From the NCBI GenBank assembly GCA_008632985.1, contig QPGO01000084.1, positions 124,001 to 188,000 on the forward strand: a stretch of 64,000 nt of DNA, read 5' to 3'. This DNA comes from Psammoneis japonica. Lineage: Eukaryota. Under the pieces are notes generated by a model. That model was given only the letters and a program-made list of their open reading frames with translations. It ran no database searches and was not told where the DNA came from. Of the stretch, positions 1 through 62,559 are shown piece after piece (the stretch's first letter is position 1; every line of letters starts with the position of its first letter). A program made the position numbers and the translations under genes.

Positions 1-3000
1 CTTGTTGCTGCTCACAATGGGATTGACGACCACCAGCTGGTTGGCATTCCTGTTGTCACTGCCAGCGGTGTCATCCACCCTCAATGTGGACCTGTCATTG
101 CCATCCTTCACCAGTGTGCTCACACTGGAAATGGCAAGACCATGCACTCTTGCTTCCAGCTCCAGGGGCACAAGCATGATGTCAATGACCAGCTGACCAA
201 GGTCCCCAATGGCTTGCAGTGCATTGCTGCCATTGACAGCTGTGTCACCCCCATCAATGTCAAAGGCACCATTGACGGCTGCATCATTCCCATCAACATC
301 GAAGGCCGAAGCCAAATGGGGAGCTTTTTTCCCCATGTCATTCTTGCTGGCAATGACACCTGAGACCCATCTGTCCTTGACTGCCAGCTCACCAACAATG
401 AGAAATGGCATGATGCCATGTCCAACCTTCAAGCCAACCCAACCACCAACCTCTTTGACAAGTTTGGCAACTGTCATGATCACTGGCATGTTGTTGACAA
501 TGCAGTGCTTGTGGACCCTGTCCTTGATGACCATGTCCTCCAATTTCTTCTGTGGGTGCCACAAGCACAAGATCAACCCCAAGGATCCCAACTGTGAATC
601 CCTGTGCACCTGCTTGGGCTTTCCTCCTGAAGGATGCTCTTTGCCACACTTTTGATTGCACCACACAGCATGCTTGAATGCCTGCCAGTGCAAACCTGAA
701 GAAGGTGTGCAAGTCACCCAAACCAGCTCTCAATGTGTCCACCAATGCAGTGAACCAGTTGCTGCTGACACTGTGTGCTCTGACACCCCTGCCATTGACT
801 CTGGATGATGTGTCAGCACATGGCTCTTTGTTGGCACAGAGTCCCTTGTCGCTGATGTGTGAGGCACCAAGGCTGACAAGGGGTTCATCAACATGCTCAA
901 AGGCAACATTCACAACCCTGGTGCTCTGTCCAAGCTCGTCAGTTGTTGTGCTCAGGTTGAGATCAGCAACAAGGTCCTTGACATCCTCTGAGCTCTCTTC
1001 ATGTTCAGCTGGCAAAGCAAGCCCACCTCACCAACAGCACCAGAATTTTGCTGAAAGCTGCTGCCAAACAGTGAAGAACATGGCCAACACCATTGTGGAT
1101 TGCTTTGAATCCCCGGACTGCACTTGGCTCCTTGCCCTCATGCACGTGTGCTTTGTGCTCAACTGCGGGGCTTCTGCCATGCTCTGCTGGCATGCCTCTG
1201 CCAAGGTGCTGTCTGGATCTACTCCCAAAGTCAGCCCCCTCCTCCATTTCAACAGTGGGAACCCTTGCACTGCCACCTGGACAATTCTGACTGGCCGTCT
1301 GAATGCTGCAAGTTGTGCTGTCACTTTGTTGGCACCGCCAAACATGTCAGCCATCAAATGACACCAAAGAGATTCTCTCTGACAACACTCAGAAGATGCT
1401 TTGCCACTCAAGTGTCCATTCTGCTGCTCGCAACCTGTGCTGTTGTCTGCTTGCAACCTGTTTCTTGATCCTCCTTGAAAAACATCTGCTGAACCCATCA
1501 TCAAATCTGACACCAACTCCAAGGATTCACCAGATTTGCCAGATGGGGAGGTGATCAGAATGCCCAAAATTCTGGTTTTTGACCCCAAGGACATCATTGG
1601 ATGCACCTTCCTCATGAAGCCACAAGAGGACAGACAGTGCTGCAGAGCCCACTTTGTCAAGGCCATTGAAAACCAAGACTGGACAAAAATTGGTGACAAC
1701 CAAGAACTCATCAATTTCATTTGCTCAGTCAACAACAAAAAGTGCACAAGGAAATCCTTGTCTGTGATGATGCCATGCACCACATGGAGCAAGAAGATGA
1801 GGATGCCACCATCCGCGGAAGTTCCAACACACCGGCTCACACAAAGGGTTGTTGAGACCTCACATGACCCCTCACTGAAAAGGCTCAAGCTGCCATGTCA
1901 TGCTTGAATGGGAGAGTGGGGAAATCACTTCTGAGCCTCTTGCCATCATCGCCAAAGATGACCATGCCACTTGTGCCATCTGCACATGCAAGTGCAGATT
2001 GCTCAAAGAAACCAATGGATGGAAATGCTTCTGAGCCACAGCCCTGCACCAGAAAAAGCCATTCCACATGTCCAGCCAAGCCAAGCTGCACTTGTTCTGC
2101 ACTGCACCATGACACAAGTGTGGGTGTGGAGTGCCCTGGGACCACAAGCACAGATTGGCCCTTGACCAGTGCAACAGCAGCTGCAAATGGGGAGACACAA
2201 TGGACCTTGAGATGGCTCAACTCAGAGAGTGCTCTGGAGCTGCATCCCTCCATGGTTTCCGGCTGACAATTTTCCTGGCTGAACTCAACAAACCAGAAAG
2301 CCACGACCATGGAGAAACTGTGCATTGTTGCAGGAACTGAAATGAGAGCATCCCAACGAGCGTTGCATTGTCCATCATGCAAATTGCGGGTTTGGATGGA
2401 CACCAGGAGGAAGACGGGGTGATCATCATTCAGCAAGTGCTGTCTTTGCTGCGACCTGGCATTTGGGGTCAATCCTCAAAACCATGGAGTTGCGGCAATC
2501 ACGTTTGTTGAGGGTGATGCCATGCCAACTGCATTGTGCCACAGCTGCAGAGAGGTGCTTGCAGTTCGGGGCTGAGAGTTTCATCATGACCAAGAGACAA
2601 ATGAACAGACCTGATTTTGTGTTGTTTTGGAAAAGACTGCTGCAGCACTCAGAAGGCTGGGTCACAAAATGTTCTGCAAGGCTTCAACAAATCGCTTTTG
2701 TGACAATCCCACAATGTTGATGTGATGCACAATGCTGCTGAAAGGCTTTGGCTTTGGACAGTGCTTGAGGGCGCGATCCCCGTCGTTGGCTTGTTCTGGA
2801 AGTGCACAATGGCACGTGTGCAACTTCTGCACAGCTCATGAAATCCATTTGTTGTGGAGTGCAATTCATGTCAATTGTTGCTGCAGTTCCACTTTCTAGA
2901 TGTAGTGCAGTCTGCAACATCTGATCTTTTTCATCAAGATCCAAACATGGCCACCACAGATGAAAGAGTCTTGAAGAAAGAACGTGTGTGGTCTTGCAGT

Positions 3001-3120
3001 TGCAGTCGAGACAATCGACTGCAAACACAGCAACTGACTTGACAGAGATCTGCAGGCCTCCAGGTGGCGACAGAATCACATCAGCCGACAGACAAAAGAG
3101 CATTGAATGTAGAAAATGAA
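1..3120 (+). mobile_element. Degenerate Ty1/Copia-like (CoDi-type) LTR retrotransposon pol remnant, TpA/CpG-depleted
   Basis: Integrase-like segment PHQQHQNFAESCCQTVKNMANTIVDCFESPDCTWLLALMHVCFVLN (~1025-1165) lies before an RT-like segment (ALDQCNSSCKWGDTMDLEMAQLRE...SLHGFRLTIFLAELN, ~2155-2290), giving INT-before-RT order. Many stops, frameshifts and deletions; LTR not delimited; end approximate. Confidence 0.7.
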
Positions 3121-3154
3121 CATGCCATCGTGAACTTGAACGTGTTTGAGCCAA

Positions 3155-4491
3155 TCAAGCACACAGATGCAGCACCGACTTGAAGACAGAGCATGCCCAT
3201 TGGAGGGGAGGGGCGCCAAATGTAAAGCTGGGCTTGGGAGTGGTGGCTGGCTTTTTGTCTCCCTTCGAGGTTGTTGACAACTCCGTGTTCTCTTCATCCT
3301 CCACGTGCTGTCGATTGGGATGCAGAGGATGCCTGCCGTCAGATCCTGTTGGCGCAGCAAAGTTGAAGCCATTGGTGCCAAAACGAGTGGCCATGCTGTT
3401 GTTGGTGCAACCAAACAATGCGGCAGGAGCAGGGTTGGTGGCGCTGTCACTGGCATTGCCAAACAGTGCGGCTGGAGCCAGAGCCGCTACGTTCTTGTTG
3501 GCACTGCCAAACAATGCGGCGGCAGCAGGATCCGCAGTGTTGTTGCTGGTGCTGCCAAACAATGCGGCTGGAGCAGGATCGTCAGCACCATTTTTGGCAT
3601 CACCAAACAATGTGGGTGGAGAAGGATTGGCCGTGGTGTTCTTGGAATTGCCGAACAATTTGACTGGGGTGGGAGCCGCTGCATCATTGTTGGCATCACC
3701 AAAAAATGTGGTTGCGGGACTGGCAGGAGCAGCCACATTGTCGAAGTCGGAGGAATCACCGCCAAGGGCAGCTGGAGCATGAAGACTGCGTTGGTGAGAA
3801 CCAGTTTGCTGCTGCAAGACAACATTGGGGCTTGCAGCAAAGTGGTTGACACACGTGGGAGTGGACCTCGTGTGGCTGGAGAGTCCACCCGAGAGGCAAC
3901 GGGAGATGTGTGTGCAGCACTGCCGTGAGCACACGTGCGTGGCGAGTCGGCTGTCCAGGGCGTCATGTGCTCGGACATTGAGGGCTCAAATTTCAAACTT
4001 TCAATGAACTTGTCATCGCAACCAGCTGCGTTGAAGCACATTGCAAAAATGTGCTTGAGAGACTCCATGTTGAATTTCGCGTTGCATGGAATCCGCTCAA
4101 TCTGAAAAGACGCGCGGTGGAAGAACCCTTTCGACCTGAGCTCTTTGACGTGTTCTTGGAACTTGGTGCATTGTGCATGCCCCGCCCCCGCTGCAGCCTT
4201 CAAGATGAGGTGGAAGATTTCCTTGTCATTGATGTCGTTGAGGTTGTCAATCGTCTTGAGCTTGGTGGTCTCCTTTGCAACTGCGGCGCCGAGGTTGAAA
4301 TTGACTTTGTTTGGGATCTGTACGAACGATTCCACCCTGCATTGCTTGGGCTTGAGGCGCTCTGCCCGATTCACGTCTTTGATTCGTCCAAGATGAACTC
4401 CAACTTCTTCCAGGGCTTTCTCGGCTTTTTTGAGGTCGTCGGCAGCCTCGGTGATGGCGGGTTCTTTAGAACGACGGACGTTTTCCGTCAC
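3155..4491 (-). pseudogene. Frameshifted ORF with FG-repeat (nucleoporin-like) low-complexity C-terminus
   Basis: ORFs 3487..4491 and 3155..3934 overlap in different frames. The latter encodes repeated APAALFGxxxN units and KPSFTFGAP. TpA-depleted. Confidence 0.5.
3405..3715. repeat. 48-bp tandem repeat, ~7 copies (16-aa LFG repeat on minus strand)
   Basis: ccaaacaatg-like anchor recurs at 3411, 3459, 3507, 3555, 3603, 3651 and 3699. Confidence 0.9.
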
Positions 4492-25381: not shown

Positions 25382-25534
25382 TGTTGCGTCTCCTATAAAA
25401 GCTCAAGTCTCCTAATGCACCAAGCCTTCTGTCCTATTGAAAGGTCTATTGGCTGTTATTGCTCATACACCATGTCCGCATCTATCTGCGCTATTGATCT
25501 CGGCACGGACGTACCGTACCGTACCAGCGTAACT

Positions 25535-26804
25535 TAATACGAAATACCTATCAATTGTCATAATTAAAAGTAGCAAATTTCATTTACAATTTTTTAGTCA
25601 ACCTCAACAAAAGTTCAACAGAAGTGGCGCGGTTCGATCGGCACCACGTAGAACCTACGGACTTCTCAGTACACACAATTCTGACGACTGACAGACCAGG
25701 TAAAACGCAGAATCACGTCAAGTCTGACGATGGCTAATTACCGCCACTGACGGCCACAATGGACGTCAACATAACGAAATGAGTAACTCCATGTTTTGTA
25801 TGTGCATCGTGTATCATTGCTGAATGGAATTTAGGATGAATTCGACTGAAAATCGGCGAAAGGATGATGTTGTGTTTCGCGCGGCGTTGGTGCGTAGAAA
25901 CGCGTAGATCATGTGCCAGAGAGCAGAATTTTTTTGACGCAAAAGATTCTCACAATCATTTGCTTTGCTCGTCTTGTCCATGCTCTTCATCAACACTGTC
26001 ACAGCTCCCATCAAACATCTCTACTGTCAATGCAAGAACCAGATGCATCCCCAATCACACCGGGGATGAATCTGAAGCGTCTGCTCAACCGCCACCGGAG
26101 CAGACGTCAGTTGAGCTGCAGGGTCTCGTTGAAGAGACATCGGCATCTCATCGCAGCGTCGTGCAGTCTTCATTTCCCTGGGCACCTCAATTGTGACATT
26201 CGCAAGTTGGCTGTCAACACGGCACCCTTTCCCCGGCTGCACTTCTTCATGGTTGGCTTTGCACCCCTCACGAGCCAAGGATCCAAGCAGCACAGCGTCC
26301 TTTCCGTCCCCGGGTTGACGCAGCAGTGTTTTGACGCCCGGAACATGATGAGCACCGTGGACCCCCGCCACGACCGCTGCTTGACGTGTGCTGTTCTGTT
26401 TCTTGGCCAAATGTCGGCCAAGGAGGTGGCCGAGCAAATGCTCAACATGATGAGCAAGTGGCGTTCTTCCTTCGTGGATTCCGCAGAACGTGAAGAACTC
26501 CATTTGTGACATGCCTCCGACGGGTCTGCCAATGTCGAGCACCTTTGTGGGCAATGCCACGGCCATGTAGAAATCATGGACTCGAGTCGTCAGTCAGTTC
26601 ATTGCTGTTTCATGGAAGCAAAAGCAATCATTTTGATTTTCGATTCTTGCCGCCATCACATGACGTCAGAGCACTGGCCTCTTCGCACATCCTGCTACGA
26701 ACAGAAGCTCGCAACTTTTGTTGGACTTTTGTTGAGGTTGACTGAAAAATTGTAAAAGAAATTTGCCACTTTTGGTTGTGACAATTGTTGGGTGTTTCGC
26801 AGCA
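25535..26804. mobile_element. Non-autonomous long-TIR element (Pack-type) carrying a beta-tubulin fragment
   Basis: 95-bp ungapped inverted repeats at 25535-25629 and 26710-26804 (15 mismatches by eye). TSD not found. Confidence 0.7.
26158..26580 (+). pseudogene. TUBB: Beta-tubulin internal fragment
   Basis: [37 protein letters not shown]...[21 protein letters not shown]..., then after a frameshift [21 protein letters not shown]. Confidence 0.92.
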
Positions 26805-26824
26805 TTCTCAGAAAAATCCGATTT

Positions 26825-27039
26825 TGGGGACGTCTCCAGACGACTCCAGCCAGCTGCTGGTCGAAGAATCTTGTGTGGGATTTGCACTGACAGAGTCTGT
26901 CAATCAATGCATTTGAGGTTATGGCCAGATTTGGTGAACGCTGGACGGACTGGACGCACGTAAATTGTACGGGTGAAACCCCGTAAACGCACTGACAAGC
27001 AGACGTTTTCCAGCCAGCAGCTGGCTGGAGACGTCCCCA
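26825..27039. repeat. Short inverted-repeat element (MITE-like)
   Basis: tggggacgtctccag[acgactccag]ccagctgctgg (26825-26860) is the reverse complement of 27014-27039 apart from a 10-bp insert. Confidence 0.55.
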
Positions 27040-27254
27040 GATTTTCAAAAAATGTCGGAAGCACGTTTGTTTTGAGTGGCGTGTGATGCTGTACACACAA
27101 TCAAGTCACAGCGCAAATTTTAACCCTTAGGGCCCTAGCTAGACCCTGTCCAAACCAGGGTTAACTAATTGCAAAGTTTTCTGCAGCAATCAGATTGCAA
27201 TCAGTCGATTGCTCTCTGCGCAAGAGCGCACTCCGCGCAGGAGAAAAGCCCGCC

Positions 27255-27621
27255 TGCAGTATGCGACTGTTATATACATATTTATGATTATATATTATTT
27301 ATATGTCAATCGTACCACAGTCGTGGATGCGTACAAAGGACAGAACGATCACACAGAGTTGATCGGATGTCGAGAATTGCAAATACGATCGATTGACGAT
27401 GTTGACATCTTACGTGTCAATAGCAATCGTATCCGGACAATCTGTTGTCACGAATATATTCTCCGAAAGGCCTTTTGTCTGTAGAAGCAGTACAGAAGCT
27501 TTAGGCCATTGAGAACTCATTCGGAGAAACCAAAAATCACAGAGTAAAATCCAATCTTATAATTTCCACTTTTCGTACACTATTCTACTTTCGTTTACAC
27601 TCGTTCTTCGAGCATAGTGCA
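27255..27621 (+). repeat. 5' LTR
   Basis: Direct repeat of 31634-32000; one difference seen. Confidence 0.95.
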
Positions 27622-39284: not shown

Positions 39285-40376
39285 GAGTAAAGGGAAAAAA
39301 GTGTGTCACAAGTGTGTCAAGTGTGTCAGTGTACCATGCCATCACGTAAACTCTACACAAACTGCATCCGGGTGACACACACTCGTTTACTTATGGGTGA
39401 CACACTTAAAAACATAAGGGTGACACACTTACTGACTCACCTTTTTACCGATTTGAATTGCCCCTGACACACTTATTTTTCAATTTCTACAGCCCCCTTG
39501 CCGGTACACAAACATGTAGAATGCACGAAAATCACGACCAAATTGATGGCGGAAAAGGGAAAAGTGTGTTGTACGATATTATGTACCAACGTCTATGCAA
39601 CCAGAATTGGATTAGAGTTTTATGTTTAATCCCGCGGATTTCCGCAGTACTGACCGCGTGGATTTCTACACTGTGCGTTGAATCATCCACGCCTTTTCGT
39701 ATGATGCGAACCACAAAACATCGAAATAGCAAATCGACGCCGACCAACAGGAGCTTCATTTCTTCCGCAACCAACTCTTTCTCTCCTTGTTTCTGCTCTT
39801 CACCAAAACTTGACAAAAACTCTGGTCACACAAAGAAATTAACAGCACTCGTTTTTCTTTTGTGTCTGCCAAATTGTGTCCAGAACACTGTTTCTACAGG
39901 ACTCTGGTACAGATTTTGTGTAGAAAAATTGTGGCACCTGGTTGTCACTAATTCTGCTTTGCCAGTGGTGAACACATTGATCTAGTGTGCTCAGAGCACT
40001 TGCACTGGTTGGAGAAAACCACGAAGAACACCAGCAGGGAAAAAGTTGGCTCATTTCTGCACCAACAAACTTTTCTCACAGCAAGCCCAGGCGCCGGTCG
40101 CCGCCCCTTTCTGGAAAGCCCCCTGCTCCTCTCCTGTTCAGTGTCGTTCCCCAAGAGGCTGAGAAAGTTTTTTGTTCAGATCTGAGCCCAGTGCACAGCA
40201 CTGCATGGTGAGTTCCATCCACACTTTGCAGCTTCTTGCTGGTCTTTGCATTTTTGCAAAAAGGAAGTCTGGCCCACCCGCCGGACGCGGCGGCCCAATT
40301 TTTGGTTTTGACAGACAATCTCAACTCAAGCTTGTTCAACAAATCTTTTCTCCTGAAAAACACCATCAGCTGAGCC

Positions 40377-42420
40377 ATGAGCACCTCCAAGGGCGAGCCT
40401 GAGGATGGGCTCACTCCCCCCCCACAAGCACAGCAAGGCTTCTTTGCTCAGTTTGTGCAGCCCAAGCTTTTGCTGGAGAGGATGGAGTTTGAGCAACGCC
40501 AAAGAGACCTGCTTTTGATGGTGAACAATGCAGCTGGCACCAATCTTGTGCCTCCTGACCTTGCCACACCTTGGCCTGCTCCAGCTCAAGCTGGCTTTTT
40601 GCCAATGCAGCCCAGCTCCAGCCAACCTGCGGCCCGCAGAGCTCAGGTGTCACAGCTGTCGCCGTCCTCCGTTGGCAGGAAAAGCACCCAATCACTGGGG
40701 CAGCCTCACTCTGCTGCCAAAAGCTTCCCCTCTGCCAAAGCTCTGTCTGGCACTTCAGACCTGGGCCCATCTGCTGCCTCTGTCCCTGGCTTGTCCAACA
40801 TCAACGTGGGCTTGCCCGAGCTCCCCAACTCCCACTCTCAAGTGTGGTCTGTTGCTGGAGATTTGCCAGGCCGCTGCCCAGGTGTTGGCTGGGCAATGGG
40901 AGTCTACTCTTGTGTTGAGCGTGGCACCAAAAAGACAATTTGCAAACACTGCTTGGGTGTCCACATTTGCACAGGTTGCAGCCTTTTTGTTGAAAGGCCC
41001 CGCCAGCCACAGGGTGGAAAAAAGAAGTTCATGCCTCCCATGCCATCAAAGCTGGTGTGCCCAAACTGTCCAAGCAACGCAGAGGGCAAGGTGCCAGCAA
41101 TGAAGCACATGCCTTGCACCTGCACAATGACCTTCACAAAGGATGGAGGCTCTGCTTGGCTTGTGCAGCACAAAGGAGCACACAAACACCCCAAGCCCCC
41201 GCCATCAAAGTTGACGCCTCAAGCACAAAGTGCGTTTGACAATCTTGTCCATTTGGCTCCAGAGGCAACTCCATCACAGCTCAGGGTTGGCAACCAAACC
41301 AGGGCACCAGTTTCAAAGCTGCACCCATCATTGTTCAACTTGGACAGAGCGAGTTATTTGCGCCAAAAGGCGCTGAAGCCCATGTCTGTCCGCTCCTCAA
41401 TCGCAGAGCTGGCAAACTTCAGAAATGATGTGGACAGATCCTTCATTCGAAGTGAGCAACTCACCACAGAAAATCAACACATCATTGTGCAAAATGATGA
41501 CATGATTGAGCTGTTGAAAGAAGGCAACAGCCCCCTGCAAACAGACTCTGTGGAAGGTTTTGTTTTTGATCCGGACTTCCAAGGTGAAATCAATGTCACG
41601 TTCACCTCAGGGTTCGACCTCACCCTGCAAATGTGGACCCCTCTTTGCATCAGCATTCTGTTTGGGAAAACAGAAGCCCACTGCAAGGTGCACTGGCAGG
41701 CTGTGCTCCAGTGCACACGAGCTGAGTCGTGGCCACAGTTTGTGGACGAGTTTCCTGGCAACACCAGTGACTTCTCAGATGCCATTCGGAAGGGTTTTTT
41801 TGCAGCCATGAAAGTGTTTGCAAAAGAAAAGTTTGACCAGGCAAAGGTTGCAGATGAAGAAACCAACCACCTTTGCAAGTTTTGCAATGTTCACTTTGAG
41901 AGGTCACGTGCCAGAGTTGCCCGCAACAGAGGTGTTGTCTCTGCTGATTTGGAGGGCGAGTTTGACTGCCAGGTAAATGAGATGAGGTCATTTGCACAAG
42001 GACAGTGCGAAAAGTTGGAGAGCAGCTGCAAACTGTTCTTCAAGTGCTTCCCAAAGGCCACTTCTTGGTTAAAGTGGCACCTCAATCCCAAACGAGCCAC
42101 AATTTTTTTCGATGCTTGCAAAAATCTCAATGAAAGGCAGGCAAAAAAAATGACAGCCTTTGTGATGACACCAATGCTCAAGAGAATGTTGGGAAGCGTT
42201 TTCAAACATGCACAGTCAGGAAAAAAATGACAGTTGGAGAAACGCTTCTTCATGCATGGAAGTTCTGCAACTCCGATCAACAAGACAGGAAGGCAGTTCA
42301 GGCTGGGCTCCCCACTCGTCATGGCGCTTTTCAGACAGTTGAGAGTGGCTGCAACAGTCCAAGGAAAAGGAGCAAAAAGCGCAAGTTCACAAATGATGGG
42401 AGAGCTCCTGACATGTCAGA
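40377..42420 (+). pseudogene. MULE transposase with GCM-like Zn/DNA-binding domain
   Basis: CLGVHIC..C...RP...CPNC..HMPC...HKGAHKHPKP; DDE-core-like LQTDSV, TSDFSDAIRKGF, CNVH (CxxH), WLKWH; DTNAQE follows a frameshift in an A8 run (~42143-42150). Confidence 0.75.
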
Positions 42421-42559
42421 AAAGCTGCTCAAGCGATCACGAAAAACTTCCAAAAAAGACGCATCAACAATGCCAAGCAAGACACAAATGCAAACATCAG
42501 TCACAGACTTCTACTCTTGGGATGACCCCAATTCCATGATGGCCAGGATGTTTGACCCA

Positions 42560-44897
42560 CCAAGGTGGGGTGTGGAGGGCACCCCCTCACGCAGAGGAAT
42601 CACAAACACATGCCCTGTGGACAGCTTTGCTGTTCTTTTTGGAGGCCTTGACCACCTTGGTCTGCTGAACAGGCCAATGGCTGAGCTTCAACAGCCTGAT
42701 CACCTGTTGGCAAGAACTGTGGCTCTGATGAAGGTGGGCAGGCATGATGATGCTCGCCATCTTTGGGTGGCTGACCGGACAGTGCTGCCTTGCATGGATC
42801 GCACAGTGGTGAGGAGCAGCACACATGCAAAAAAGTTTGACATGTTTGGCCCATCAATTTCGGTTGTTTTTGGTCACCCATTCTTAGAGTCATTCGAGTT
42901 TCAGGTCAAATTTGAGTGCAACTGCACTGGTGGAAAAGATTGGTGCCCCAATGCACAGCCAACCAATGTGACAGAAACACGCACTGTTGTTGAGTGCATC
43001 GATGACCTCTCTCAGCTGCAAGAGACACTTGACAGGTGGGTGGGTGAGCACCTTTCAAGCTGTGCATGTCTGGAAGGTGGCGGAAAGGAGATGTCTCCTG
43101 ATGACCTGCAGCAGCTTAACTGGGAGACTGACACCACTTTGCAGGCAACAGTGGGTGCACACGCGGGCAATGCCTGTGGCGGCACTGTTTTTTCATCTGG
43201 AAAAAGAGTCATCAGGTGCCCTCATTTCTTGGTGTGTCACGGGCCAGCAAAAGGTCCCACATCTGACTTGTCAACTGTCCCAAAGTCCACAATCTTTGCA
43301 GGAAAAAGAGGGCTGCTCAGGGGGACCATCAACACACAAAACAACATGCACCACACTTGCTGCATCAAGCTGCCTGTGGTGGAAAACAGAAGAACAGCTT
43401 CATTGCACCACAAGGTGCGCCATGGGCAGGGTGCCAGCAGAAGACATCAAGAATCTTGTGGAAGAAGCAACTGGGCTTCCCAATCATCAAGATCTCTGGG
43501 ACATGGCTGCAGAGTTGGGCATTTCTTTTGCGAGCCAACCTGGCAGTGAGCAAAAGGAGACACAGCCTGCTCAGACAAGTGTGAACAGTGCGCTCTTTGA
43601 GGGAGAAACAGTGTCGCTGCCTGTCATCAAATGGGGTGTGGACCCAACACCAAAGCTCTGTGAGTTGACCAACACGTGTTCGCTGGACTCAAATTTGGCA
43701 TTGATGTGGATTTTGCTGAGAAACAATGGTTTCACCAGCAACTCAGTTGCACCAAAAGCTCACACTCTGCACAAGGCAATGAAGATGATTGACAAAGGTC
43801 AGTCAGGAGAAGCAAGGCACATGATCCACAGGTCTGCCCCCCTCTCTCCACAGCAGAAGACACTGCAGATTTCAAACAACCCACAAAATGTTGTTGTGGA
43901 CTGCTGGGAAAGTGCAGGACTGAGGGCACAACACTTGCTGCAAGGAGGAGCCAAGCACAAGTTTCAAATCACACTGACCAGCTGTGCCAATCCATTGTGT
44001 CTGTTTGATTGCAAAATGTCAAAGTCAACAGCAAATCAAGCTGTTGCTTCCCAGAACTCAAAGTGGACTGACCTTGAGTTTTTTGAATCTGAAATTTTCA
44101 AAAAGCAAAGGAGAGTAAATTGCGCGATGTGTCATGAAAGGACAACTGTGAAAACAGAGGAGCTGTTGTCATTTGAGTCCAACTTGTTGGTTGCAGACAT
44201 GGGGCTTGGGGTGGACGAAAGTGGAAACAGCAGCATTTCCTCTCAAAGATTCAACACTTTGCCATTTGTTGTTCCTCACAAACACAAAGAACTGCATTTC
44301 AAGGGAGCAATTTTGGCAACCAACAACCACTTCAAAACCATTGTAAAGTTGCCAAACTGCTTTGTTGCACATGATGGCATGTGCACTCCACAATGTCAAG
44401 TGCACTCTCTTGAGGTCACAGAGGCGGAGGCAAAAGACATGCAAAACAATGGAGAGACTGAGTTTCATCTGCAGTGGCTTTTGCACGAAGTGTTGGACAG
44501 GGAGAACAGAGCAGTTCTTGCCAGCCCAGAGAAACAACTTCCAGAAAACCTTGACATGCAACATGACAGCACAGTGGAGGAGTTTCCAGAAAACATGGAG
44601 CCCCAAGATCAACCAAAGGAGCTTCCAGAAAATCATCCGCAGCCAGAAGCAGCTTCATCAACAACCACAGAATTGGCAAATGGCAGCTCTCAAGAGGAGC
44701 TCAGGTTTGTGTTTGTGGACACAATGGAGTCCTGGAGAAAGTGCAGGGGATGTGAAGGAAGAGTTAAGAAAGGGCAGGAGGCAATGCAGGTGAGGGTGCG
44801 GAGAAGGCCAAAGAAGGAAATCTTCTGCCACACAACAACAGAGTGTGTTCAAAACACACTGTTTTCACTGCAGGCGAAGATGGAGATGCAATGTTAG
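42560..44897 (+). pseudogene. MULE-borne region with two papain/USP-like protease domains and a C-terminal Zn finger
   Basis: Duplicated module WGV..TP....TNTCPVDS / WGV..TP....TNTCSLDS with downstream His boxes (NNMHHT; NNHFKT...AHDGM); RKCRGC...CHTTTEC. Confidence 0.55.
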
Positions 44898-45209
44898 ACT
44901 CATTTTGCAGCCAGGACCTTGCTCATTTGGAGAGCGATGCTGTGACAAAAGCACAAAGGGTGCTCCAGTCACTGTTGGACACAGAAACAAGCAGCGCCCC
45001 CCCTTGAGGGCATCGCCAGGCAACCAGGAGAAGAGCTGCCTGGTGCCCCAAAAAGCTCACTTCCATCTGACTTTTTTGGCTGTGTGGAGACTTGTTTTGT
45101 CACATCACATTTTACCACATCATTTTGGTTTGTGACAAAATTGCATTTCATGTCACTTGGTTACGTGCACATTGTGAAAGTGTGGCATTTAATTGTGTGT
45201 TTGACTCAA

Positions 45210-46000
45210 GTGCAACATCACATCACACCACATGACACAACATGACACAATGTGACATTGTGCCATGTGATGTCACACAACATGATGTGATGTCAAATGG
45301 TGTGGCTGTTTTGTGTCATGTGATGAACTGCACAAATGTCAATTGTCTGTCTCAAGTTCTGCAATTTAGTTTGTGACAACATTTCATTTTTTGGTGTCAT
45401 GTGATGAGCTGCAAAATTGTCAATTGTCTGTGTCAAGTTGTGCAATTTTGTCAAATGCAGAGCAAAGCAAATTCAGACATTGGTTCTGCAAAGTCGTGCA
45501 ATTTTGTTGAATGCAGAGCAAAGCAAGTTCAGACATTGGCTCTGCAAAGTTGTGCAATTTTGTCAAATGCAGAGCAAAGCAAATTCAGACATTGGTTCTG
45601 CAATTTCATTTAAATTCAGACATTGGTTCTGCAATTTTGTTCAATGCTCACACCAGGTTAAATTGAAAATTTGCTCATCTCAGGTGAAATTGTGGCACAA
45701 TTCAAGCACCATTGCATGCAGCGTGATGGTAAATCCAGACATGGGCTCTTCAACATTTAGCTCATCTCAGCTCATTTTAGGTCAATGTGACATGATGTCA
45801 ACACATTAAGTTGCACAATGTCACACGTGAACGAAATTGTTGTGTGTTTGGCTGAAGTGCAAAATCATGTCATCATGTGACATGACATGACATGTCATCA
45901 TGTGACATCACATGACATGATGTGACACAACAAACATGGCATGACAACATGTGGGTGTAAATGCCGGTTTAGTGTTGACACATGAAGTCACACAATGTCA
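45210..46000. repeat. Low-complexity block: 5-bp periodic YRYNR microsatellites flanking ~57-bp tandem repeats
   Basis: catca/catga/cacaa/tgtga/tgtca runs at 45215-45295 and 45865-45950; gtgcaattttgtcaaatgcagagcaaagcaaattcagacattgg x3 at ~45440-45600. Confidence 0.8.
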
Positions 46001-46023
46001 CACATCAAGGAGTTTCTGCACCA

Positions 46024-47217
46024 TCACATGCAGCGCAAGATTTTTTCAGCCTTTGCCGGATCTGGTGGACAAGCCTTCATTGCGTTTTTCAACTTGGCGC
46101 GACTGCTTTTGTCCAAGGCTTTCAACACACAAACCTTCTCTCCTCCAATTCTCTCAAAACAATCCAACATGGTCACCTTTGTTTTGAAGTCTTTGTCGCT
46201 TTTGTGGCCCTCCTGAAACTCAACGCAGCCATGCCATGCCTTGGTCACAGCAGCTGCAGATCGACCTTTAAAAGGGTTGGACTTGTGCTTGTCCTGTTGC
46301 TCGTCCTGCGGCTCGCACTGCTCCTCCTGTGGCTCATCATGCCTCTGCTGCTCGTCCTGCAACTCCTGCGGCTTGTCCTTCTGCCCATCCTCCCCATCAC
46401 CCACCTGCTCATCTTCCTCAGGTTGGTCCTTGTCCCCAATGTGGTGCTGTTCGTAGTTCTTTGGATCCTTGAGATTTCCCCTGGGGGCAAGTCGGTGCGA
46501 CAAAATGGTCTTCATTGCCATCTGCTTTTTCCTTCCATGTTGTGCAACAATGGCATCCTCTGCTGCCACCGGGCACCTGTTCCTGGGCTCATGTGCTTCA
46601 ACAACAGCAACCTCTGGGAAGGCCTTGCCACCGTGGCCCGCCGGTGCGTCTTCTTCTGCCATGCCCTTGTGACGGGATTTGTTGGGCTTCTTTCCTGTCT
46701 TGTTGCTCTTCTTCTTCCTGTGTTTCTGGGGCAACTTCGCCACCTTTACATCATCAGAGCTGTCAGCAGCAACAGCATCATCAGAGGAGCTGCAGGCAGA
46801 GGAACCGTCAGTGTCCTCAGAGACATCATCATCCAAGTCGCTGTTTGGAGCCGTCTTCCTTTTCTTGTTGGTGCCCTCAGAGACATCATTTTTTCCCCTT
46901 TTCTTCTGAAGACTCTTCAAGTGCTTCCTCCAGGCCTCAAAGTGCACACATTTGGGGCCATGCTTCTGGCAGCAGCTGGTGAGGGTGGTGGCTTTCTGGA
47001 TGGAATGCTCCACCCCATGCTCGGCGGCGCAAGGCAAACAAATGTGCTTGGTGGGTGTTTCCTCCACCATGCTGGGTGTCACCATGTTGTTTGCCCCACC
47101 TCCTGTGGATGCGGCAAAACAACGGATTCCTCCTTCCCTCATGGAAGTCTTGACAGCTGCCTTTAGTGCACGAAAGTCATTCTTTACACTTGACGACATC
47201 ATGGTCCACCAACACAC
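46024..47217 (-). pseudogene. Second, convergent MULE ORF (accessory, charged low-complexity)
   Basis: Long minus-strand ORF near the right TIR with K/D/E/Q-rich tracts. The convergent two-gene layout is typical of MuDR-like elements. ORF length is partly inflated by stop-codon loss. Confidence 0.45.
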
Positions 47218-47480
47218 AAACGATGTGAATGTGAACTTGGACGGTGTGCACCGCAGTGGGTGGCCGCGCGTCAGCTCAGAATTCTGATTGCATCGTGTGG
47301 TGGTGGCTCCTCTTCACATGCACACGTGGCAGCGTGTGCGGGCCTTCTGTCACTGGACGTCACCGTGACGTTGTTTTAATCGCACTGGACGAAACGCGCG
47401 CAAAATTGCACGTAAAAAATTGACACACTTGAGTGGCACACTCATGACACACTTGATGACACACTTTTTTCCCTTTCCCC

Positions 47481-47990
47481 CACTTTGATCACTGCTGTTT
47501 CCACTGTCGGCCGTCATGGCATTGACCAAAAGAACGGGTTTATCCTCATTTTGAGAAGCATGTCGAACACGCGCCACGGCGCCGGCTCGAATGGTGTTTG
47601 GGGCGGCAAAGCATGCTGTGCCTTGTTGAGCATCAATGGCAAATTGACTGGTGGGATCACCCATGTTGTGATCGGGTCCACTGAGTTTGCGATGCGACGA
47701 CAGCAGGGGGGTCAGACGGTCAATGATGACATTTCGTCACTTTAAAAAGGGGTCATTTCTTTGCTCAAGGGGGTTGTTGAGGGACGAGGCAAGTGACCGA
47801 GCACTGCAACAACTGTCCCGCCTGATGTCACCGCATCTGCAAGTTGCCATGAGAGCCAGCCGAAAACGCTCTGCGCGGGGGGGGGGCATGACCTGGTGCA
47901 TCCGCAAGCTGAGTGACTTCCGCCGCTCACACAAGCTCGCTCTGCGCGTGACTTCTCCACACCATGATCACGCTTTTGGGTCAAATTGAA
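47481..47990 (-). pseudogene. sufD: SufD upstream part (TpA-depleted), continuing across the MULE
   Basis: SHRKLSGPDHNMGDPTSQFAIDAQQGTACFAAPNTIRAGAVA...KPVLLVNAMTADSGNSSDQS joins in frame to EKGVSCHPR at 39275 once the element is removed. Far boundary approximate. Confidence 0.8.
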
Positions 47991-50250
47991 GCTCCAAAGA
48001 AATGTGGGGGGAGGCGCAAAGCCCGTGTGAGACCTCCTTGCAGCTCTTGCAACAAAAAACACATCCAGCAGTGCACTGTCATGGCAGGAGACAAGGCAAG
48101 TCATGGTGCCCACACAGCGACTTTGTCGTGCCTGGTGAAAACAGCGGACAGCCACAGCATCAAAAGTTGCTGTTCTTGGCACTGGAGGAGCTCAAGACGC
48201 GCTCTGCAAGTCCAGCCAGGTGAGGGGCACTCCCAACTGGGAGGTCTGCAAGTGGTGGGTGAGGGGCCTTGCCTGCCTCCTCGCGCCACTCACTGGACTG
48301 TGCACACGAGACTTTTTTAGATGATGATGCCACACCACATTTCTGCGTGCTGTCTTCTGCAAAATTGTTCCAGGCTCCTTTTTTTTGTGAAGCCAAACAA
48401 GGCTTTTTATTTTCCACATTTGTGAGAACGAAAACAGTGTGCTTCAAATGTGGAGGAGGAGGCACTTTCACAAAATGGCCCATTTTTCTGTTGGCAACCA
48501 CAGAGCATCTTGCACACAGAATCTGCAGGCAAATGCCACACAGCCCCACCCAGGGCTGGTGAGCACATCTCAAAAAGGAGGCAAGATCTGGCGGCTGCTC
48601 TGCGGACAGCTGTGGAAAAGAAAACACAAGCAGCGATGGTGACACTTCTGCCTCCTGGATTTTTGACTGGTCAATGTGGGCGACAGGCAGGCTCTGCAGC
48701 TGACTCTGGATGGGCCAGAGCAATCTCTTGTGGAAAAATGACAAACCTTGAGTTCAATCTTTTGCAGAGGATGAAAGAAATGACAAAGCGAGCACGGAGA
48801 AAGGAGTCATGAAAAAGCTGAAGCTTCCAACTTGCTGCATGTCCTGAGAGAACAAGGTGTCAATTTCATGACACGCTGCACATCATGCAAGCAGCAAAGG
48901 CAAGTTGGTGTGCCAGGCACATGTGTGCAAAAACATGCAGACACATCTTCAATCTGGCAGCCAGCTGTGCTGAACAAGCTCTGTGGCCCACCTGATGGCA
49001 CTCTGCATGTGGCTATGCCAACCCAGATGTGGTGCATGCCTTTCAACAAAAGTCAAAGTGAACAATGTTTTGAAAGCATTGGCGAGTGGTGCCAAGCAAA
49101 AGAAGAACAAAGATTGCTCCCCTTGCTGCTGTGAGGCATTTGTGTTGGCCATGTGAAGCAAAAGTGGCAGGAGCCAGCCAACACACACAAAGAGACCAAG
49201 TCAGAAGCTGTGGCCTTGCACAGAGGAGACAGAGGGGGCACTGCAGTGGCAACAATGACTGTGCAGGGCAGTGATGTGCACAGGCTCAGATGCTTGACTG
49301 GGCAAGAGAGTGGAACATTTGCAGGTGCAAATGTTGGGAACATTTTGCAGCAAAAAAGTTGCTTGATTTTTGTGGTTGCACTCATGGGTTTTTCCCAATT
49401 TCTGTTGGGACTCTCTCTGTTTTGTGTGCCAGCTTTGGCTTTTCATCACAGCAAGAAAGTTTTGTGACAATGATGGTCAAAGTGCACCACAAAATGCAAA
49501 CAGCACAGCCATTTGGCGCCAGCCATGGGAATCTCATCAGTCTGGCGCCACAGCACATGTTTCAGCAGCAGGTGTCAGTGCTTGATGGCCCTGCTGCAGG
49601 CATTTTGTTGTGGCCACATTTTGTCTTCTGCCACACTGGGGGAACCACAATCTCTCTCCACAGAGTTCCGTGGCATTTTTGTGTGGAGCCACTGACAAAA
49701 CTGACCTGCGGTCATGCCGCTGTTGCTCTCATCAGAGAGGTTCTGCAGCAGGGGATGCCAGCAGATCACAGGTGAGCTGCCAGCTCTGATTTCAAGAGGA
49801 AGGGCTGAAAACAAAGTTCTGTTGAAGAAATGGGCAGTCAGCTGACAAACAGAGCACTCCTCCGCCCTTGGGCTGACTCTTCCAGTGCCCAAAATGTGCA
49901 CGATGTGCTCTTGACCTGAGGGCTGGCTCAAGACAACACCTTGCACCATCTCCAATTGCCAAAACAAAGATGTGGTGTGCCCACATCATTTCATCCTGCT
50001 TGAAAGATCTTTCGCACTTGATCCACACCTCTCCCCATTGAATGCTCCTCACACAGAAATCACAAGAGCTGTTGGTGTGCCGCTGTGATGGTGTCAGTTG
50101 AGACTCCAATTCTTGCGGTCCATGCTGTTGCGATGAGACAAGGCAAACAAGGACAACAGCAGTCCAAACAGTGGTGTGCTGCAGCCGGTGACGTGACGCG
50201 ACGTGGATGGCTGATGAGTGATGCATGAGATGATGAGAGCGATGAGCGAT
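47990..50250. other. Unclassified TpA/CpG-depleted degenerate sequence
   Basis: Same compositional signature as the neighbouring transposon; no motif that I can assign. Confidence 0.5.
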
Positions 50251-50471
50251 GAATGAGGCAGGGCGCTCGCGAGGTTGGAGAAAACGGCATGTAGACTACG
50301 AAGTCTGGCGGGGCCCTCGTCCGTCCGTCCCTGTCACCTTCAGCCCGCTTCCCGCCGTTCTTCCATGCCACGCACATCTTGAATGTACAGTTAGCATCAT
50401 GCCATAACGGTATCAATCGTAGTGTTGTTGTTGACTTGTGAACTATTTCTGTTCTAAGCTATGCCATAATC

Positions 50472-55259: not shown

Positions 55260-58200
55260 CCAAGCACGCGTGAGGTGTGGTTGTTACATTTGACGAACCA
55301 CAATTTGAAACAAAACACAGTCCAAGCACATCTGCCAAGAAACAAGTTCATGTTCTGTCCACTGTTTTACAAAAAGGTTTGGAACAAGCTGCTGAAGATG
55401 ATGGAGAGTGTTGCTCAATTCATCGGAATTGAACGGAGATGTGCAATTCTTTCTTGCAATTCTTTCTTTGGTCAAATTGATTTTGCAGGTCTTGTGCATT
55501 GCAGGGAGATTTTTTGTGTGCTGGTGCATGCTGTTTGCAGAAAATGTCAGACTTGTCATGATCCAAATGTTTCTTTTTCTTTTGTGAACAAGTGGCCTGT
55601 GCCAACAGAATTGTGAGAAAAAATGCTCACAGTGTGCCAGCCAGAATGGAAATTTCTTGCTGCAGATCTGCAGAGCAACCAAGTGATTGAACACAGCTGT
55701 GCCAATGACTCTGACTGGCTTTTTTGGCTGAGGTTCAAAGTCTGTCAGCAAAAAGGTGAAATTTTTTGCCAGTCTGAATCGAGGTTGGAGTTGGCAGCTG
55801 CAACCAGTGCTTGGGCTGACTGCATTTGGACATGAAATTTTCCATCTCAGGAGTGCACCAAGGGACACCAGGAGATTGTCTTCTTTCACATTGAAACTGC
55901 ACAAATCTTCTAAACCCAACAATGTCTGCAATGAACCTCTGCATCTCTCTGCCCCACTCAAGTGCCAAGCTCTGCATTTTGCAAACACAATTTGGCCAAC
56001 AGGAGGCTGTTGTCCCCTTTCTAAAAGCCACAGTGGTCCCTGTGCTCAAGGCAGATTATCTGGACAATGATCCTGCCAGTTGTTGTGTCCAGTTGAGCAA
56101 AACTGACAGCAAACAGTCTGGTGCACCAGCTCAAAACAAACAGCACCCTTTCACCCTGTTGTGCAGGTTTTTGGCATTCTCGTTCTGTGGCTGACCCCCT
56201 TGTGTGTCTTGTTGCCAAGGTCTGTCTTGCTTTTCAAAGCAAGCCTGCTGTGCAAACAACTCTCACTTGGCTCAACCTCAAGCCAGCATGCAGCTGAGTT
56301 GAACATTGGCATTTGCTGGATGTCATGTGCAGCTGGCTTCTGCTGCCATGTTGTGCCCACTTTCATCAAGGACTTCTCTGTCATTGCATGTTTTGAGTCA
56401 AATGTGGTGATCACCTTAGTCAACAAGCTGGCAAAAATTCCAGAGCACCCCAAGGTGCCATCTCTTCTCCTGCTCCATTTGTCATTTGCTTGTGGAAGAC
56501 AAAATTTGGCACAGACTTCCCTTGGCACAACAACGAAGCACCAAACTCAGGCACGTTCCCACCCTGATAATTTCGGCCGTAAAATAAATATAATTTGGCC
56601 AAATTTACGTATTTACGGGCGTCAGGCTGGGAACGAATTCGATCGGTAAAAAAGATCAAAATCTCATGTCGAGCTCGGTGAGGACGCTACACGCCACAGC
56701 ACTGTTTACACTGCTACTACAGCACTGGCTAGAGCTGCTAGCTAGAGAGACACCACAACATTGTCAGCGACAATCGTTGTCCATTTTGCGATTGCTCTAC
56801 GGTAACCCAAGACTCAGGATAACACCAGTGAAGGTCAGAAGAAATATATCCAACATTCAATCCACTAGCAAGAGTTGCAGAGAGATCAGAAAGACGCACG
56901 AAACAATGGCATGCAGTGAGACTACAGCATGTAAAACTACTAAATGTAATTTCTACAGAATGTGAGGTACTAAAAGGCACCATTGTTAACTCTTGCGGTT
57001 TACCATTGGCCTAAATCCATTTCAAAGAGCAAAGTAACAAAGAGCAAGTCGCAGAGAAGGCCTCCAGACAGTAGAGTAAGGCACTGTGAGGCAATGCCGA
57101 CGATGTTGCGCAAAACATTGACCCCCACCGGCATCATTGTCCTAACTTCCGACAAGATTGATGAAATAAGTGCACACAGCCTTCTTCATAGTCATATTCT
57201 ATCACAACAAGCCTTCCTGTTGTTGTTGAAGTGACCAAAATATTGCATTCTTGACTCTTGACCGTCAATCAAGTAACCTTGAGTATACACCAAAGAACCA
57301 CCTCAATGTAACATCAGATCATAATATATTGCTACGAGGATTCGGCCTCAAGTCTGTAGACGTATGGTTTGTGAAGAATCCCAACGCGAAATCTGAACAA
57401 GAGAAACGAAGACATCAAAAATACCATTAGTCGACACGGTCGTCATAAGCCATAACAACAACGAAAAATCAAAATTGTGACAGCTTGATCGTATCGAGCG
57501 TAGTCTTATTGACCTGTCTCTACATTCTTACCTTCGTAGACAGGACGGTCGTTCGTGTATGAACGGGTCCGTTCATGGCAGCAGCCATCATGGTTGTTGT
57601 GCGATCGGAGCGGAGAAAGAAAAAAAATGGGCGGCTTGTGTGACGTGGCACGTTCGAGCTCCCAAAACGCCGAATTTACCGTGAAAATTATATTTACGGG
57701 AGAGAATTTACGACGACCGACACCTGTCGTCGTAATTTGCTGATAATTTCGGCTGTAAATTGGCGGATGGAAAACAGACGTGCGATTTTTCTTGTACGAG
57801 AGTTTCTACAGGAATTTTGTGTAGAACGAAATTATATTTATTTTACGGCCGAAATTATCGGGGTTGGAACGTGCCTCAAGCTTTTTGCTGATGATCATAC
57901 AACACATGATGTGTCTGGTTGCAACAATGGAGTTCTTGCCCAAAAACTGCTTGACTTTGCATCTGCTCAGCCACCTGAGCCATTGGACAAGTGCACCACT
58001 CAGAAATGCCATCCCTTCCTTCTTGCACAAAACAACCACAATCCATGGCCTTGCATCACCAGGCACAACATCATGCTCTGGCCTCCAAACCTCAAGGACA
58101 AACATCACAAGCAGCCTTGCATTGAAGTCCTTGGAGTTTTTCTTAATCCAAAATCATTGTGGAGCATCACCTCCATGCATTGCTTGACAACTCAAGTCAG

Positions 58201-59100
58201 TGCATCTTCTTTTTAGCTGGGCTTGTGAACTCAAATTTGGCCTTGTCAAAAGAAAGTTTGCAAACACTCTGGGTTGCTTGTGTTTGCAGCCTTCTTGAAC
58301 ATTGTGGCCTTGTCTGGCTCCCATCCTTGCCCCATCATGCAAATTTGGAGAAATTGGGGTGCATCCAACAGAAAGCTCTGAGACTTGCTTTGGGCATTTG
58401 GAAATGTTCTCAAAACAATGACATTCTCCTTGGAGCAAACTTGCCTGCTCTCCAAACATGCCCCTGCTTTCTCAAAGCTTTTCAGCAGAAAAGCACGTGC
58501 TCTTGCCCATGTGGCTCCTGCCTCCAACTGTCTCACAAGATCCTTGTGGCCACACACCTCTGTGACAAAATTCTGCTTGAGAGTGGTTTTCACCCAACAT
58601 GAAATGAAGTGCACCCACAAATCTCTCATCTTTCTGACAAACTGGTGCCACTTTCAGGTGACACACCCCAGAATGTGCTGTGGGATCTCTCTGCCCCCAA
58701 CCATCTGGTTGTTCATTCACAGCTTGGAAATCTTTGCAAGAAGAGCCCTGGTCTAAAACAAAAGGCAGCAACTGAGCCGCTCAAGCTGGGCTCCTTTTGT
58801 TGTTCTTCCTGGACTGATGGCAGTGTGCTTTCTCATGAAACCAACACTTCTGCCACTCTTGCTGCTTCTGTGCCACCAATGGAGGTCCAAACAAGTGATG
58901 CAAGCTGGACAGATTTGCCATGTTTGCACAATCTGTGAAAACTGCTGGCATTTTTGCCGCCTCTTGCACTTCTGAAAATGAAGCCATTGAGCTTGTGCAG
59001 CCTGCTCCACATCAGTCAGATCCAAACAACACACCAAAACAAATGACTTTTTGTTGGCTGAGAAAGCCATTCTGCCCCTCAAGCTCTTCAAGCCAGAAAG
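55260..59100 (+). mobile_element. 5'-truncated non-LTR retrotransposon (RT + RNase H), TpA/CpG-depleted, interrupted by a MITE
   Basis: KATVVPVLK...DPAS, LSPCCAGFWHSRSVADPL, PQGAISSP, KLKLFADD (reconstituted across the insert), LGVFLNPK, LEKLGCIQQKALRLALG; RNase H WTDGS at ~58810. Ends approximate. Confidence 0.82.
56550..57875. mobile_element. PIF/Harbinger-like non-autonomous element (1326 bp), normal TpA content
   Basis: ~47-bp TIRs ggcacgttcc(c/a)accc(t/c)gataatttcggccgtaaaataaatataattt; 3-bp TSD tca (56547-49, 57876-78); no transposase ORF seen. Confidence 0.85.
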
Positions 59101-62100: not shown

Positions 62101-62559
62101 AACAATGACCCCATGTTTGGTTTTGATGATGATGATTCACCCCATCCTCCCCTTCCTGAAGCCCTTTTGAATCCAGGTCCATGACTCTCCTGTCAGCTCT
62201 CCTGCCATTGGAGACATCTGTCCCCCCTTTTGTTCAACACTTGGGCCCCAATTTGTCTTGTTTTCTAACAATGCTGCACCTGCCCTTGGAAAGGACAGCC
62301 CTGCAGATGTTCCTGATTTTGCCACAGCTCTGACTCTGGCTGTTGACGACGGGGTGCTTGGGATCCCCCTCTGACAATGTCGCCCCCAGCAGATGACACT
62401 TCTTCTCCATCTTTCTGTGATGGCTTGGCCGCAGATTCCTCATTTGATCCCAAAAAATCACTGGGAAAGATGCACAATCTTGTTTCTGATGAGGACTTTG
62501 ATGACGTTCCTCTGGAATGCTTGCCCGGTGCCACACATGTGGTTCATCTGCTGCATCTT

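Follow-up and report, generated by a model that had tools for sequence, protein, structure and literature searches.

The element and its insertion site

The 64,000-nt window analysed here, positions 124,001 to 188,000 of contig QPGO01000084.1 in the Psammoneis japonica assembly GCA_008632985.1, contains at 25537-26802 a non-autonomous DNA transposon with terminal inverted repeats (TIRs) of ~99 nt, a member of a multi-copy family whose insertion at this locus is polymorphic. The only coding content of the element is a captured fragment of a beta-tubulin gene, and much of the element lies in a tract of ~1 kb from which the dinucleotide TpA has nearly disappeared; it is the origin of this tract that is considered below. 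The features of the locus, and of four larger domains in the same window that are likewise poor in TpA, are listed in Table 1, and all positions are those of the window.

Contigs of one public sequencing run (X1), which contains 81% of the words of the window, were aligned onto the window; 147 of them were placed, and the single-copy k-mer depth in this run is ~58. Differences between the window and other copies are taken from the best 40 of 119 differing places, 33 of which lie in the tract and 6 in the left part of the element.

The insertion itself is delimited by an empty site. One contig links 25535 to 26804 with a single ambiguous letter, omitting 1,268 nt, and the ends of the omitted sequence coincide with the ends of the TIRs. 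This contig, whose shorter side is 30 nt, retains a single TA where the filled site is flanked by TA at 25535-6 and CA at 26803-4, and the target-site duplication (TSD) was therefore probably TA with the right copy since changed to CA. The first-pass annotation of this locus had described arms of 95 bp; that alignment stands, but its outermost 2 nt (TA at 25535-6 and CA at 26803-4) are probably TSD and not TIR. The k-mer depth over the arms is 690-1,314 as against ~58 for single-copy sequence, and together with the existence of the empty site this indicates a multi-copy family with presence/absence polymorphism. Other copies of the family depart from the window at 26132 and again at 26642, where contigs have loose ends. 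A separate contig of 270 nt (depth 60) joins 25365-25472 to 26802-26919 with 47 other letters between and a divergence of ~8%, and would represent this locus without the element, as a diverged allele or a paralogue.

No further copy of either the element or the neighbouring miniature inverted-repeat transposable element (MITE)-like repeat was found within the window, where a search with 18-mers allowing up to 3 mismatches gave the two arms and one chance match and sensitive blastn gave self matches only. The invariant 18-nt core of the TIR, when sought in metagenome contigs (21 loci) and viral contigs (4 loci), gave only chance matches of no more than 20 nt.

With its TIRs enclosing a fragment of a host gene, the parent copy of which is elsewhere in the genome, the element resembles Pack-MULE and Pack-TYPE transposons. 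The TSD of Pack-MULEs is 9 bp, however, and that of this element is probably the 2-bp TA. In its TIRs and its multi-copy polymorphic family it is like Tc1/mariner or Stowaway elements, and a TA duplication, for which the one empty-site contig speaks, would fit them too; it carries no transposase by which a superfamily could be assigned.

Table 1. Features of the transposon locus and TpA-poor domains of the window (o/e, observed/expected dinucleotide ratio)
Feature	Position	Strand	Evidence or remark
Left copy of probable TSD, reads TA	25535..25536		empty-site contig
Left TIR, 8 TpA intact	25537..25635	+	repeat finder, arm alignment
Internal sequence; 25589-25720 and 25965-26135 common to other family copies	25636..26143	+	X1 contigs, joints 25705/25720>25965, k-mer depth 480-800 vs ~58
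TpA-depleted tract; right three quarters of element and ~115 bp of flank including MITE start	25911..26918		o/e: TA 0.07, CA 1.60, TG 1.42, CG 0.77
Captured beta-tubulin fragment, ~residues 227-387, only in this copy	26144..26609	+	Pfam, tblastn, loose contig ends
Right TIR; 7 of 8 left-arm TpA read CpA/TpG	26704..26802	-	repeat finder, arm alignment
Right copy of probable TSD, now CA	26803..26804		sequence and empty-site contig
Very high-copy MITE-like repeat, 40-nt inverted arms, 17 bp from element; left part in tract	26821..27053		depth up to 10,324 vs ~58
Almost TpA-free, CpG-poor domain, window start	1..4321		dinucleotide composition
Almost TpA-free, CpG-poor domain with degenerate transposase-like gene (GCM-like zinc finger, DDE-like core, USP-like peptidase)	39984..50292		composition, profile search
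Short TpA-poor domain	55368..56417		dinucleotide composition
Almost TpA-free, CpG-poor domain, extends beyond window end	58215..64000		dinucleotide composition

Comparison of the two arms

A repeat finder pairs 25540-25635 with 26704-26799 as an ungapped inverted repeat of 96 nt, 85% complementary and with a spacing of 1068 nt, and across framings of 96 to 101 nt the identity of the arms is 83-85%. Two framings were used for the counts that follow, the 95-nt arms of the first-pass annotation and arms of 101 nt. In the first of these (25535-25629 against 26710-26804) the alignment is gapless with 15 mismatches. The left arm has nine TpA dinucleotides, and opposite eight of them the right arm has CpA or TpG; the ninth, within TTTACA, is shared by both arms, and there are no cases in the reverse direction. 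All of these counts reproduce those of the first-pass annotation, including its statements that TA sites account for 8 of the 15 mismatches and that the sole surviving TA sits in TTTAC. With the 101-nt arms, mismatches fall on 8 of the 18 bases that lie within left-arm TpA and on 9 of the 83 other bases (Fisher p = 0.002), and in all eight TA-type differences it is the left arm that has TA (two-sided binomial p = 0.008).

The arm pair alone cannot show which arm has changed, a pairwise comparison being symmetric, and outside references are therefore needed. These were found in the composition of the DNA around the arms, in the captured tubulin fragment, in other copies of the family and in the two copies of the TSD.

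The TpA-depleted tract

When the expected number of TpA is taken from the background o/e of the window (0.59 for TA), the 1,008 bp of the tract should hold 35.8 TpA and hold 4 (Poisson 2e-11). The sequences on either side are close to expectation, with 21 TpA against 17.9 in the 375 bp of 25536-25910, 35 against 41.0 in the left flank and 11 against 12.0 in the right flank at 26919-27254. The left part of the element has o/e ratios of 0.69 for TA, 1.16 for CA and 1.21 for TG, which are approximately those of the background (0.59 for TA, 1.17 for CA and 1.14 for TG). These counts bear out the first-pass annotation, according to which a TA-depleted domain contains the right arm but not the left, and the fraction of TpA lost from the right arm (8 of 9) agrees with that lost from the tract as a whole. 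The losses from the tract amount to ~89% of TpA and ~21% of CpG (50 CpG against 63.6 expected), that is, the loss of TpA has run far ahead of the decay of CpG.

In repeat-induced point mutation (RIP) of fungi CpA is converted to TpA, so that TpA/ApT rises and (CpA+TpG)/(ApC+GpT) falls. For 26001-27000 these indices are 0.15 and 1.49 respectively, the inverse of the fungal pattern. The left part of the element has background composition and the tract a TA o/e of 0.07; it is thus the right side that is anomalous, and the left shows none of the surplus of TpA that a RIP-like process would leave.

The tract does not respect the boundaries of the features it covers. It crosses the right end of the element into the flanking MITE-like repeat, and at 26876-7 in that repeat the window reads TG where the majority of the family reads TA (26877 G>A, 2,639 of 4,331 depth). 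Its midpoint, 26415, is close to that of the tubulin fragment (26377), beyond which it extends by 233 and 309 bp on the two sides.

The tract ends some way short of a young long terminal repeat (LTR) element at 27255-32000, which begins ~340 bp past the tract and ~450 bp past the transposon. This element is 4,746 bp long with ~39% GC, has identical 367-nt LTRs (TG...CA ends) and open reading frames (ORFs) of up to 178 aa, and with a TA o/e of 0.77 is untouched.

The captured beta-tubulin fragment

Approximately 466 bp of a host beta-tubulin gene have been captured by the element, and the fragment lies wholly within the depleted tract. It is recognised by the Pfam Tubulin_C profile (E 4.5e-22) and is 67-69% identical to six ochrophyte beta-tubulins in tblastn comparisons, and it is damaged: the reading frame shifts near 26457-26479, and a single in-frame TAG interrupts it at 26568. 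Its 146 aligned codons include 38 that differ from all five of the reference tubulins compared. Six of the 38 fit a change of TA to CA or TG, among them both of the conserved Tyr codons that the fragment retained, compared with 0-2 that fit each of three control dinucleotide changes; a further seven are changes of CpG to CpA or TpG. The Tyr codons have gone from TAC to CAC (His, 26291) and from TAC to TGC (Cys, 26378), and a Val codon from GTA to GCA (Ala, 26222).

The public run also contains contigs that differ from the window by 13 letters and 5 gaps over 183 nt and in which neighbouring differences bring back the residues R, E, C, A, A and G of the tubulin consensus, for which reason they are taken to be the parent tubulin gene. 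At 26223 these contigs have T, which gives GTA, whilst T at 26291 and A at 26379 each give TAC.

Direction of the change

Other copies of the family, of the MITE-like repeat and of the tubulin gene point the same way. Among the 33 in-tract differences considered, 11 have CA or TG in the window and TA in the others and none has the reverse, with six of the 11 leaving TG in the window and five leaving CA. They include 26032, 26058 and 26083 in the interior that is shared by the family and 26672, 26676 and 26686 just inside the right arm. Within the TIR itself the site at 26774, which is the partner of left-arm position 25565, has the TA state in four contigs that make up 242 of 315 depth. Thus four independent lines, namely the tubulin codons, the other copies, the TSD copies and the composition of the DNA, support TA as the ancestral state, and the arms differ in one direction at eight TA sites because the left TIR, being outside the tract, keeps its ancestral TpA. 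The view of the first-pass annotation that TA was lost on the right, not gained on the left, agrees with all four.

That the change was made in place follows from two observations: the tract crosses the end of the element into the MITE-like repeat, and the right copy of the TSD is CA whilst the left copy and the empty site are TA. We consider it likely that TpA-specific transition hypermutation, acting after insertion, struck a tract of ~1 kb in and beside the transposon with its captured tubulin, and that it also stripped nearly all TpA from over 20 kb of transposon-like DNA in the window.

A number of observations weigh against this reading or limit it. The arms were never identical, since the mismatches that are not of TA type number 7 in the 95-nt arms and 9 (of 17) when arms of 101 nt are used. 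The left arm holds the derived state at 25621, where the other copies side with the right arm in 678 of 736 depth, and at 25564-5, where the left arm has TT and the right CC, other copies apparently have CT, which would require a change on each arm. Arms that are imperfect in this way, with 25621 derived on the left, mean that some of the TA-type differences could predate the insertion. Only one of the eight arm sites (26774) is directly polarised by other copies among the differences considered, the other seven having no usable comparison because they are within 31 nt of contig ends or outside the best 40 places. One position outside the tract, 25735, has TA in the window and CA in three contigs, the sole reverse case in those 40 places, and one tubulin codon has likewise gone the other way (CAG>TAG at 26568). 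Finally, the agreement of the public run with the window is not fully independent, as its library type is unrecorded and the window may have been assembled from it. The description of the arms in the first-pass annotation as a direct before/after record is accordingly sound as to polarity and overstated in view of the mismatches outside TA and the single polarised site; the arm pair is a good record, not a clean one. The consensus of TIR copies that was proposed there as a test is itself biased, because other copies have been exposed to the same directional process, as 25735 illustrates.

The reading that survives best beside hypermutation in place, although we regard it as improbable, is that the pattern was acquired elsewhere, either because the arms already differed in the source copy or because the right part was imported by recombination or gene conversion from a mutated copy. 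The 9 mismatches among 83 non-TA positions of the 101-nt arms would fit arms that were imperfect from the start, mutated potential donors exist (25735) and rearrangements between copies are common, as the joints 25705/25720>25965 attest. Yet the depletion runs past the element by ~115 bp, into unrelated flanking DNA, changes are present as well in the right TSD copy and, at 26877, in the MITE-like repeat, the tubulin fragment that is specific to this copy is mutated too, and the TA-type differences between the arms are one-way in 8 of 8 cases (p = 0.008).

It is scarcely credible that the DNA is still TA and that a modified TpA was base-called as TG or CA by long reads. In favour of such an artefact, 26032 and 26379 read TA in contigs of this very locus in the public run and TG in the window, and the sequencing technology is on record for neither the window nor the run. 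Within the tract the contigs of this locus nevertheless follow the TpA-poor sequence (no differing letter in 193 nt, one in 183 nt and two in 727 nt), where correction of miscalls would restore ~6 TpA per 180 nt. The tubulin fragment, moreover, has the indels, the frameshift and the CpG>TpG/CpA changes of a truly decaying pseudogene, and 5 of 150 representatives of the homologues of a transposase-like ORF elsewhere in the window (see below) are free of Tyr as well.

The opposite polarity, in which the CpA/TpG of the right arm is ancestral and the left arm acquired TpA by C>T/G>A in the manner of RIP, deserves hardly any weight and is already contradicted: half of the core mismatches (7 of 14) do have T on the left and C on the right, which is also the RIP direction, 25564-5 holds a C/T difference outside a TpA context with C>T on the left arm, and the motif AAAAGTGGC that is repeated in the arms reads AAAAGTAGC in the outer left copy only, but the left part is at background composition with the RIP indices inverted in 26001-27000, 26774 is TA in other copies, the Tyr codons went TAC>CAC and TAC>TGC, and just one of the six left-part differences considered has TA in the window and CA in the others.

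Two further explanations were ruled out. Selection or codon usage that avoids TpA would not account for a pattern that hits all frames as well as non-coding DNA, destroys conserved Tyr and has sharp boundaries. An RNA intermediate edited by an ADAR was ruled out for the tract, because the tract passes from a DNA transposon into its flank.

The contigs of this locus in the public run differ from the window by 3 letters in ~1,100 nt in total, and at two of the three (26032 and 26379) the run has TA and the window TG. For 26379 the parent tubulin gene, which also has TA, marks that state as the ancestral one. This suggests either recent or continuing mutation of TpA to TpG or a difference between haplotypes or cultures.

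Large, almost TpA-free domains of the window

The pooled depleted domains of the window have o/e ratios of 0.04 for TA, 0.25 for CG, 1.74 for CA and 1.82 for TG, with the other dinucleotides at 0.79-1.26, near their values in normal DNA. The losses correspond to ~93% of TpA and ~75% of CpG. Mobile DNA all along the window has thus been subject to the destruction of TpA, and the 1-kb tract is a smaller and less advanced instance of the process that is at saturation in these domains.

The consequences for coding are considerable. Tyr makes up 0-0.3% of the residues of ORFs in the depleted domains as against 0.9-3.4% in normal ones, and His and Cys are raised, whilst the stop codons in 40000-50000 comprise 472 TGA, 41 TAA and 12 TAG. 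Tracts of this kind lack Tyr codons and the stops TAA and TAG, and therefore yield long spurious ORFs, and transposases within them escape profile searches.

A case of this sort is found in the domain at 39984-50292, where three overlapping ORFs of 618, 471 and 641 aa occupy 40374-44897 on the forward strand with no Pfam assignment; they are pieces of one decayed gene. The first, 40374-42230, has 677 homologues at E <=1e-3. At eight columns where Tyr is conserved in 30 Tyr-containing homologues a single Y is left in it, the other positions being H, H, C, C, V, V and a gap, and yet at conserved columns of other residues it keeps 12 of 15 F, 3 of 4 W and 8 of 10 H. Combined into a profile, 20 homologues gave matches to the DNA-binding domain of GCM (PDB 1odh, E 7e-13) and, at E 4e-9, to USP46/12 peptidases; the profile contains an invariant D, D and E, and one member weakly matches the Mutator transposase. 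On account of the GCM and USP matches, the invariant D/D/E and the Mutator match the domain is identified as a decayed DNA-transposon gene. A search of the ESM Atlas with the ORF at 42972-44897 gave leads to USP peptidases that all stayed below threshold (0.80-0.85), and the PDB profile search later supported a relation to both USP and GCM.

Around this transposase-like gene lies a pair of inverted repeats, possibly TIRs, built of GTGTGTCA units (39289-39331 and 47409-47476, ~8.1 kb apart), the left outside and the right inside the TpA-free domain. Over the ~40 nt that can be aligned they contain no TpA and are thus uninformative as to its loss.

The TpA dinucleotides that survive in the depleted domains were counted by context. 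Over 1-3900, 25911-26918, 39984-50292, 55368-56417 and 58215-64000, ATAN accounts for 0 of 55 survivors, compared with 369 of 1302 (28%) in normal DNA. GTAT, GTAC and ATAT are absent, TTAA is enriched 6.7-fold and TTAG/CTAA ~3.4-fold. This suggests a mutator with an extended preference for sequence context.

A probable course of events

The course of events was probably as follows. A TIR transposon carrying the ~466 bp of host beta-tubulin would have inserted at a TA. After insertion, 25911-26918 would have been struck by changes of TpA to CpA and to TpG in roughly equal numbers, which removed ~89% of its TpA; this stretch includes the tubulin fragment, the right TIR with its TSD copy, and ~115 bp of flank in which the MITE-like repeat begins. 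The chemistry is most likely deamination of adenine in 5'-TA-3' on either strand (A to inosine, which is read as G), as proposed for the alga Bigelowiella natans. Targeting was probably by silenced or methylated chromatin, or by small RNAs; chromatin is suggested because the saturated domains are also poor in CpG. The effect would have been to cripple the element, with altered transposase sites in the right TIR and a loss of Tyr codons and coding capacity.

A much bolder proposal, which on present evidence we hold to be unlikely, is that diatoms or a relative possess an active defence that edits adenine in 5'-TA-3' under the guidance of chromatin or RNA, that the tract was nucleated by the tubulin fragment, whose midpoint is so near its own, and that the process is still running, as the two TA>TG differences from the run (26032 and 26379) would suggest, and has the extended context preference to which the absence of ATAN among the survivors points. 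Were nucleation by tubulin to be true, homology to an expressed host gene, or double-stranded RNA, would have triggered editing that then spread for a few hundred bp.

Relation to known systems

The closest counterpart is in B. natans. Two viral regions integrated in its genome are reported to have gained 231 de novo mutations in mutation-accumulation lines, of which 230 were A>G or T>C, all on TpA, at a rate of ~6e-7 per site per generation, ~1000x the background. The genome of that alga has clusters depleted of TpA and enriched in CpA and TpG, which are enriched in transposon-type domains, and an ADAT2-like DNA adenine deaminase has been proposed by the authors (Mettrop et al. 2026, bioRxiv 10.64898/2026.01.13.699255).

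The present window shares with B. natans changes that are confined to TpA, the formation of both TpG and CpA, discrete tracts of foreign or mobile DNA as the target, the same long-term signature and genes of transposon type among the sequences affected. There are also differences. The host there is a chlorarachniophyte, a rhizarian, and here it is a diatom-like stramenopile; the TA o/e here is 0.04 over several kb compared with a Rho of 0.45 for the region derived from a nucleocytoplasmic large DNA virus; and the depletion here is coupled to a depletion of CpG. Viral inserts are the targets there, whereas in the window the process has struck DNA transposons, a MITE and a piece of a host gene that had been captured, and the de novo rate is known there whilst here the pattern is read from sequence. 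New in the window are the host lineage, a depletion close to saturation and its coupling to the loss of CpG, the kind of process being already known from B. natans.

There are also similarities to RIP, in that a dinucleotide-specific transition hypermutation inactivates mobile DNA, leaks over a few hundred bp and forms sharply bounded domains. The direction, however, is the opposite, with TpA destroyed and CpA/TpG made so that the indices are inverted, and the host is not a fungus. Nor does the window give a sign of a dependence on repeats, as in RIP, the young LTR element ~340 bp away being untouched.

Hyperediting of the ADAR type, which prefers a 5' U, and the ADAT2/TadA family of deaminases both convert adenosine to inosine. 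The pattern in the window has the same A>G outcome with a 5' T/U neighbour on either strand. In the window, however, genomic DNA itself carries the change, which continues past the end of the transposon into its flank and so cannot be explained by an edited RNA.

A full-text literature search found no report of TpA hypermutation in diatoms. The rhizarian alga B. natans is so far the only organism in which invading DNA has been shown to undergo TpA-specific A:T>G:C hypermutation. The same signature, close to saturation, in a diatom-like stramenopile would mean either that this is a widespread eukaryotic defence, a counterpart of RIP with the opposite chemistry, or that it has arisen repeatedly. 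The element described here provides a natural experiment, as the unmutated arm, the parent gene, the empty site and the family copies all serve as site-by-site references, and its tract, with TpA lost so far in advance of CpG, offers a view of possibly ongoing activity.

Other features of the window

Two tandem paralogous ORFs on the reverse strand, 6348-8264 and 8644-10365, have weak matches to the sulfotransferase family and contain a pair of direct repeats (6918-7070 and 9196-9348) that are 71% identical. The ORF at 18724-20304 is related to diphthamide synthesis; among matches with a named source diatoms come first, at 42-51% identity, and the top match without one reaches 58%, none being identical, in agreement with a host that is a diatom or closely related to diatoms. 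It is followed by a reverse-strand ORF of 1,223 aa at 20808-24479, which has no Pfam match and contains, at 21161-22239, six to seven tandem repeats of 156 bp (52 aa).

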